Assembly (NCBI GenBank): GCA_951406725.2
Contig: OX597833.1
Span: forward strand, 45,880,001 to 45,944,000
Length of the DNA: 64,000 bases
Reading direction: 5' to 3'
Origin: Octopus vulgaris
Lineage: Eukaryota
Below, one piece after another: positions 35,277 to 35,995 of the stretch. A program made the translations under genes and the position numbers. Under the pieces are notes generated by a model. The model was given only the letters and a program-made list of their open reading frames with translations. It did not search any database and had not been told where the DNA came from. Numbering within the stretch: the stretch's first letter is position 1; every line of letters begins with the position of its first letter.

Positions 35277-35995
35277 CTTTCAACTTCCAGATCAAGCAGG
35301 AGCCAATACACGCAATGGAGACAATACAGCCAATGGAGCCAATGGAGCCAATGGAGCCAATAATGCTGGAACTGGTAACGCAGTAATCGATATTGGAAAC
35401 CTCACCCCAGCTGCTGCTGCTGCCGCCACAGCGAGAACCGCTGCTGCGGCTCAAGCTGCTGCTGCTGTCGCTGCAAACACCGCTGCTGCTGAAACCGCAA
35501 ACGCCGAAGCTGCAAATGCTGCTGCCGCCGCCGCTGCCGATGCTGCCATAGCCGCCGCTGCCGCTGCTGAAGAAGCCGCTGCCATTGCTGCTGCCAACCC
35601 TGACGACCCCGAAGCCGTTGCCAACGCCACCGCCGCCGCTGCTGTTGCTGCCGAAGCTGCTGCCCTAGCCGCCAGTACTGCTGCTGAGGCCGCCACCGCC
35701 AACGCTGCTGCTGCCGCTGCTGTTGCCGGTGCCGCCGCCGCTGCTGCTGCCGCCGTCACTGCCGAAGATGCTGCTGCTGCTGCAGCCGCTGCCGCTGCCG
35801 ATGCTGCTGCAGCTGCCGCCGCCGCTGCTGCTGCTGCCGCTGCCAATGACACTGTTGTGAACGGAGAGGCAGCTGTAGTCCTGCCGGATAACCAGTTGGC
35901 CATTGCTGAAACCGGTCTTGTATTTGTGGTCACTGGAAGACTGATTCAACAGCTGTAAGTCGATTGCTTAATTTCTTCTCCTCTCACTCCACCAT

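Follow-up and report, generated by a model that had tools for sequence, protein, structure and literature searches.

Positions 35291-35954 of the Octopus vulgaris window (the whole stretch of 64,000 nucleotides that was analysed) are a genuine coding exon, part of a protein that is abundant in octopus ink. The octopus gene models that we retrieved omit 166 codons of this protein, so a correction is due. The protein itself is of a known type: its full sequence already stands in a published supplement, and the gene is already annotated. The exon carries a long acidic alanine (Ala) tract ahead of an animal haem peroxidase domain. Our best explanation, to which we give a probability of roughly 0.6, is that the protein is a relative of the melanogenic peroxidase of Sepia that polymerises melanin with non-covalently bound haem, and that the Ala tract would be a helical stalk anchoring or packing the enzyme in the melanosome.

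Gene modelling gave 14 exons, every one with GT-AG borders, that join into an uninterrupted 932-aa ORF between 28429 and 53129 on the forward strand (Table 1). Exon 2 is 100% identical to P0001/CAI9737761.1, and ink peptides come from its end. Its hydrophobic N-terminus is the sole hydropathy peak in the whole 932-aa protein and is for that reason a likely signal peptide; the basic patch of the same exon holds 13 Lys and Arg within residues 20-74. A Pfam search found no domain in exons 2 and 3, matched PF03098 to P0001 at E 3e-146 (488 bits), and matched PF00090 to exon 14 with 22.9 bits against a cut-off of 21.6. Both the PF03098 domain and the fold, the latter taken from the Sepia model, place the protein in the peroxidase-cyclooxygenase superfamily. 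Peptides from exon 14 were recovered in ink with 15 and 30 spectra. An earlier note on this DNA had proposed a secreted peroxidase-fold protein with a thrombospondin type 1 repeat (TSR), and the two Pfam matches and the signal-like N-terminus bear this out. The 932-aa model contains neither the integrin-binding KGD motif of peroxinectin (PMC4420034) nor RGD.

Table 1. Positions of the exons and of the principal features of the octopus gene within the window.
Feature	Position	Strand	Evidence or remark
Exon 1, start codon	28429-28436	+	GT donor; N-terminus of CAI9737761.1 matched by model
Exon 2: hydrophobic N-terminus and basic Arg/Gly patch	31326-31546	+	Contigs join exon 2 to exon 3
Exon 3: NG repeats, Ala tract, conserved pro-region helix	35291-35954	+	Frame, contigs, ink junction peptide
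Stretch excised by CAI9737761.1 (498 nt, in frame)	35375-35872	+	GT...AG ends; retained by 4/4 contigs
145-aa acidic Ala tract, model aa 117-261	35410-35844	+	Translation; predicted two-helix hairpin, NPDD turn
Exons 4-13: animal haem peroxidase domain	37018-51060	+	PF03098, ink peptides
Exons 4-8	37018-37232, 38611-38796, 39609-39633, 42011-42126, 43248-43349	+	
Exons 9-13	44616-44714, 46488-46956, 48256-48468, 50462-50628, 50958-51060	+	
Exon 14: TSR and stop codon	52918-53129	+	PF00090; ink peptides
Distal motif G-V-F-L-N-H-D	38748-38765	+	His420 kept; Val416 for halide-site Gln; Asn419 for ester Asp
Distal Arg549 kept, Val552 for ester Glu	within 46496-46807	+	Alignment
Ile649 for lactoperoxidase Arg348, proximal His652 kept	within 46496-46807	+	Alignment
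Proximal Asn727 kept in this species, Gln730 for lactoperoxidase Arg440	48329-48352	+	Alignment

Exon 3 is 664 nt long with AG/GT borders, an entry phase of 1 and an exit phase of 2, exactly as the earlier note had placed it. If exon 2 is spliced directly to exon 4, codon 78 becomes a stop, so exon 3 is required for the frame of the 932-aa gene. The composition claimed for the tract was also confirmed: its 145 codons comprise 104 Ala (72%), 13 acidic residues (8 Glu and 5 Asp) and a single Arg, arranged as 62 residues, NPDDPE and a further 77 residues, with Ala runs of up to 14. The description of its codons as mixed was right in part, with 97 of the 104 Ala codons being GCT (55) or GCC (42). 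The account of the residues leading into the tract needed correction: 15 residues separate the NG repeats from the tract.

Splicing was assessed over 31300-37300 on contigs from 4 of 20 public runs with matching sequence, a sample of assembled contigs rather than raw reads, in which rare transcript forms are hidden. The four runs represent four studies and three organism labels; their RNA origin is guessed for three and unknown for one, and four same-species runs with a share of 0.00 have no bearing on tissue pattern. Exons 2, 3 and 4 are contiguous and in that order in all four runs, which upholds both junctions singled out for checking, 31546/35291 and 35954/37018. The latter is listed as a GT-AG joint for every run; the former is inferred from consecutive record positions rather than from the joint table. 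By record positions, exon 3 measures 664, 664, 655 and 673 nt in the four runs, and these changes of 9 nt keep the frame, where frameshifting length variation had been named as something to look for. Across 35291-35688, all five differences seen in two other organisms are synonymous (chance 0.002-0.004), four of them GCC to GCT; both runs share the same five, so they count as one observation. Coverage of 35689-35856 was judged by length alone, not letter by letter. Two backward joints, 35653/35517 and 35540/35517, were taken as repeat misplacement; their letters match 35756-35777. A near copy of the exon 4 acceptor (37010-37024) lies 220 nt upstream at 36790-36804 and leads to a stop after four codons in frame.

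The public model CAI9737761.1 ('peroxidase [Octopus vulgaris]', 719 aa) excises most of this exon as an intron. The acceptor of that supposed intron has a pyrimidine fraction of 0.29, compared with 0.47-1.0 in 13 real acceptors, and the ORF from the ink proteome retains the stretch as the contigs do. The intron is likely an annotation error. The same model skips exons 6 and 7, the second of which is backed by an ink peptide that spans 42126/43248. The exon had been described as hidden, and so it proved: the tract is missing from all five models compared (CAI9737761.1, XP_052831162.1, A0A0L8FXZ4, UPI00071D43B6 and the partial Argonauta GAB1610096.1), which are the same gene or an orthologue at 83-100% identity, three of them being O. 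bimaculoides-type. UniProt A0A7E6FIS1 shares the exon 2/3 junction peptide and may hold the tract. XP_052831162.1 (O. bimaculoides) uses, in place of exon 3, the counterpart of a stretch of intron 2 at 33498-33590, which has zero depth in all four runs.

Two rival readings would make the tract an intron or exitron, following CAI9737761.1, or else a neutral GCY microsatellite. The GT...AG ends and intact frame of the 498 nt would suit the first supposition and the predominance of GCT and GCC the second, and the loss of rare forms from contigs makes a minor spliced isoform conceivable. These readings are largely refuted by the weak acceptor, by the full exon 3 in 4/4 contigs with indels of 9 nt only, by the wholly synonymous differences, and by the presence of the tract in the Sepia and Euprymna proteins and in the ink-proteome ORF.

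That ORF, of 953 aa and derived from a transcriptome, appears in the accessible part of supplement S1 to an O. vulgaris ink proteome (PMC10142993) and includes the whole Ala tract. Its length is that of the 932-aa model with 18 residues added upstream and 3 inserted; the displayed part was compared with the model by eye. It ranks 4th among 361 ink proteins, behind three haemocyanins; the 25 peptides and 268 spectra assigned to it come from all three ink samples (PMC10142993). Ink, one of the candidate sites proposed from the DNA, is therefore where the protein is abundant, and the proposed search of proteomics data for a junction peptide also succeeded: a 20-residue ink peptide spans the exon 2/3 junction 31546/35291 (2 spectra, 2 of 3 samples, PEP 1.9e-4). 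Among the 30 peptide groups listed in the part available, two lie upstream of the tract (4 of 271 summed spectra) and none comes from within it. Trypsin, the protease used (PXD035359), cuts the tract into pieces of only 41 and 168 aa, so in mature ink the tract may be either attached or gone; the protein would be about 95 kDa plus glycan with the tract and about 69 kDa once it is cut off. The word 'alanine' is absent from the main text of PMC10142993. The published proteome thus places the protein in ink, as would be expected of a coleoid ink-gland peroxidase. Since milked ink contains cell and blood proteins, presence in ink alone does not prove a melanogenic role.

The architecture is already known from two database entries tied to papers of 1993 and 1997. 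The Sepia officinalis 'melanogenic peroxidase' (O18504, CAA72331.1, 926 aa) has its parts in the same order as the octopus protein, and the Euprymna scolopes peroxidase-like protein (Q24926, AAA16245.1, gi 159008, 891 aa) shares the architecture; in both, a signal-like start is followed by a basic patch, an acidic Ala-rich tract, the peroxidase domain and a TSR-like Cys/Trp end. This overturns the view that the layout was undescribed. O18504 is linked to Gesualdo et al. 1997 and Q24926 to Tomarev et al. 1993. Neither the Ala tract nor the altered haem pocket appears in titles or abstracts among the matches listed; Tomarev 1993, Weis 1996 and Gesualdo 1997 may discuss both. The accessible portions of PMC5379566, PMC13739555 and PMC12773714 say nothing on the tract.

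The octopus protein is 69.5% identical to those of Sepia and Euprymna over 629 aa, compared with 42-50% for paralogues. On a midpoint-rooted tree of 25 rows built from the peroxidase and TSR region, six related rows including these three proteins form one clade with support of 100/100, within which octopods separate from decapods. The tract is seen in three of the six rows, and the remaining records are partial or mis-modelled. Pfam recognises a TSR in octopus exon 14, whereas the C-terminal module of the two decapod proteins gives no such match at E 0.01. P0016 (815 aa), a related peroxidase-TSR protein that falls close to the cephalopod rows, lacks the proximal His and is likely an inactive paralogue.

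Ala makes up 53% of the tract in Euprymna and 50% in Sepia, where it is accompanied by 22 Asp/Glu. Alignment of the octopus tract to those of Sepia and Euprymna beats shuffled sequences with z of 3.4 and 3.0 (1 and 3 of 1000 shuffles, respectively, scored as high), which suggests, modestly, that the tracts are homologous beyond composition. Since the last part of exon 3 can be aligned to the pro-regions found in other mollusc peroxidases, the tract would be an expansion inside an old pro-region, and the idea that an Ala domain was fused to a peroxidase is doubtful. A 60-aa window with at least 40% Ala occurs in 1 of the 150 best representatives, an amphipod protein with an Ala/Thr/Glu stretch; in this library each 50% cluster contributes one protein, and a tract-less model stands for the coleoid clade. 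The architecture is therefore described, as the earlier note had allowed it might be, without being widespread. A query with Sepia residues 255-345 returned only three known proteins among 106 candidates, and the ESM Atlas gave no usable match.

AlphaFold2 placed helices at residues 39-101 and 106-195 of octopus exon 3 with the NPDD turn between them (mean pLDDT 72, above 90 in the core). The prediction for the tract is thus a two-helix hairpin, with helices of about 63 and 90 residues; since predictors make poly-Ala helical in nearly all cases, this is weak evidence. For the Sepia protein, seven helices were predicted over 98-260 with pLDDT of about 55-75. Acidic residues recur there with a 21-residue period that the helices match, and Gly-Ala-Asp turns come every 21 residues or so, whereas the octopus tract is purer in Ala, has no such period and is predicted to form two long helices. 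A predicted homodimer of the hairpin, run without an alignment, scored 0.18, which speaks neither for nor against self-association.

The composition of the tract (72% Ala, with its long runs) had suggested a structural biomaterial of egg case, sucker, beak or skin built on silk-like beta-crystallites, or else an antifreeze-like domain. Type I antifreeze proteins carry Thr every 11 residues, and silk-like and shell-matrix proteins alternate short poly-Ala blocks with Gly-rich blocks. Both hallmarks are missing: no two of the 8 Thr in the tract are 11 apart, there is one Gly in 145 aa, and helices are predicted in octopus and Sepia alike. The winter flounder antifreeze protein did come up in a fold search with the hairpin, though with E 5.4, a probability of 0.11 and an rmsd of 34.8, and none of the seven matches reached E 0.001. 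The protein occurs in ink and is closest to an ink-gland gene, and nothing in this analysis supports the other tissues, so we regard a biomaterial or antifreeze function as very improbable, although a second site besides ink is conceivable.

Pocket residues were mapped through an alignment with lactoperoxidase (LPO), whose numbering is used here for reference positions. The distal His and Arg and the proximal His are present as His420, Arg549 and His652, and every complete member of the clade, octopod or decapod, keeps these residues (LPO His109, Arg255 and His351). Five of nine pocket positions are altered across the clade: Val stands in place of Gln105, Asn of Asp108, Val of Glu258 and Ile of Arg348, and Arg440 has given way to Gln, Ser or Ala. 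The Sepia pocket shows the octopus changes, apart from having Asp in place of the proximal Asn and Ala where LPO has Arg440; Euprymna has lost the Gln, the ester acids and the arginines as octopus has. LPO and myeloperoxidase (MPO), of peroxidase-cyclooxygenase family 1, have their fold in common with the clade (the Sepia model matched them in Foldseek at E 1e-32, with a TM of 0.84-0.86 by target), and the Ca-binding Asp110 is kept. The octopus protein differs from both in the five replaced residues and in having the Ala tract and TSR.

Loss of the Gln and of the two arginines is rare elsewhere. Among 29 other proteins in the alignment, Gln105 is found in 28, Arg348 in 28 and Arg440 in all 27 with letters at that position. 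A wider search covered 149 complete domains, 130 of which have the His/Arg/His triad; none of the 130 lacks all of Gln105, Arg348 and Arg440, and five lack any one. We take Arg348 and Arg440 to hold a haem propionate, and found no literature on this point. The R-x-x-E signature of the ester Glu reads R-V-N-V in octopus, loss of this Glu being common (present in 95 of 172 domains). The G-Q-x-x-D-H-D signature of LPO/MPO-type halide peroxidases (PMC4420034) reads G-V-F-L-N-H-D, and their proximal His-Asn-Arg triad (PMC5787809) is broken, consisting here of His652, Asn727 and Gln730.

According to the portions available of these two papers, the Gln seems to be involved in halide binding and the Asp and Glu form the haem ester bonds (PMC4420034); fewer ester bonds go with a lower redox potential, which is tied to halide-oxidising capacity (PMC5787809, PMC4420034); and an enzyme with one ester bond cannot oxidise chloride (PMC5787809). 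A dual oxidase domain that lost its activity lacks the proximal His (PMC4420034). That His/Arg/His persists in every complete clade member speaks for conserved haem chemistry, and a pattern of loss found in none of the 130 other domains suggests that haem binding may be weak or absent. We infer from the alignment either a non-covalently bound haem in a pocket fit for one-electron oxidation or a protein that binds haem weakly.

Sepia ink-gland peroxidases are described, in the accessible part of PMC4052311, as located in premelanosomes and thought to polymerise DHI/DHICA to eumelanin, and one ink-gland-specific peroxidase was cloned. The Sepia gene is an ink-gland gene whose protein is in ink, as the octopus protein is. 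Under our preferred reading, the octopus protein would enter the secretory path through its putative signal peptide, bind haem b without ester bonds, activate H2O2 by way of His420 and Arg549 with His652 as the haem ligand, and oxidise dihydroxyindoles, rather than chloride, by one electron at a time. It would reside in premelanosomes, polymerise dihydroxyindoles there and leave with the ink. The least certain step concerns the tract, which may be helical and serve to anchor or space the protein within the melanosome matrix, or may be a pro-piece cleaved on maturation. If it templates melanin granules, this would be relevant to the formation of uniform Sepia-type melanin particles.

Euprymna fits a melanin-only role poorly: unlike the octopus protein, its clade member is expressed in the light organ, is listed as a 'halide peroxidase' and is said to make HOCl (Q24926; PMC3187790, PMC3843225 and PMC6386654, in the parts available). 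By analogy, the octopus protein could be released into the ink sac as an antimicrobial halide peroxidase, its tract being a pro-piece. Common clade membership speaks for this, but octopus, Sepia and Euprymna all have other residues in place of the halide-linked Gln and both ester acids, and one ester bond is already too few for chloride oxidation; we think it quite unlikely. The loss of the Gln, the ester acids and the two proximal arginines calls into question whether the squid relative is itself rightly labelled a 'halide peroxidase'. Euprymna has 14 expanded peroxidases (among the same three sources, in part), so the halide activity could belong to another of its genes, and orthology with the octopus gene may be one-to-many. 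The cited literature, in the portions available, yielded no assay on purified protein behind either 'melanogenic' or 'halide'. The ink and light-organ peroxidases of octopus, cuttlefish and bobtail squid are now linked, and a comparison of their pockets is a cheap test of these two long-used labels.

PMEL offers a vertebrate analogy for a scaffold in the melanin granule matrix. The octopus protein might likewise be a scaffold or pseudo-enzyme, its Ala tract self-assembling as the eumelanin matrix and its domain binding haem poorly while the neighbouring paralogue does the chemistry. Very high abundance in ink, the altered pocket positions (a pattern absent from the 130 other triad-bearing domains) and conservation of the tract from octopods to decapods would all be in keeping with this, as would an upstream paralogue that keeps Gln105, Arg348, Asn437 and Arg440 and has an ink peptide (2 spectra). 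Against it, the distal His, distal Arg and proximal His persist in every complete clade member, when the inactive dual oxidase domain has no proximal His. Weis et al. 1996 are also said to have immunoprecipitated peroxidase activity with antibody to the Euprymna protein. On balance we consider a scaffold role unlikely. A broader proposition, that the coleoid ink 'peroxidase' is a counterpart of PMEL with a crippled or re-tuned pocket and that the squid light-organ member of the clade cannot make HOCl, is decidedly doubtful; if it were true, alanine helices would self-assemble into a matrix that sizes ink granules, and the squid-Vibrio model would credit the wrong gene.

The upstream paralogue is represented in the window by the 3' exons of a tandem peroxidase-TSR gene (P0011/P0012/P0060 type) at 1235-5997. 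It has no ester acids, accounts for one peptide in the ink proteome, and is fused in public models P0011 and P0061 to a transporter-like gene. An inverted repeat of about 1.0 kb (34274-35275 and 53250-54245; 97% identical over 1005 columns) flanks exons 3-14, one arm ending 15 nt before exon 3 and the other beginning 120 nt past the stop. The repeat is partly a high-copy element, and 34315-34515 is almost without depth in the runs; it may reflect a recent duplication, an inversion-prone segment or an assembly effect. ORFs at 8697-9110 on the reverse strand and 59889-60317 on the forward strand resemble LINE reverse-transcriptase ends by eye, with no Pfam match at E 0.01. Intron 11 holds a Pif1 helicase fragment at 49331-49936 (PF21530, E 2e-14), likely a Helitron remnant.
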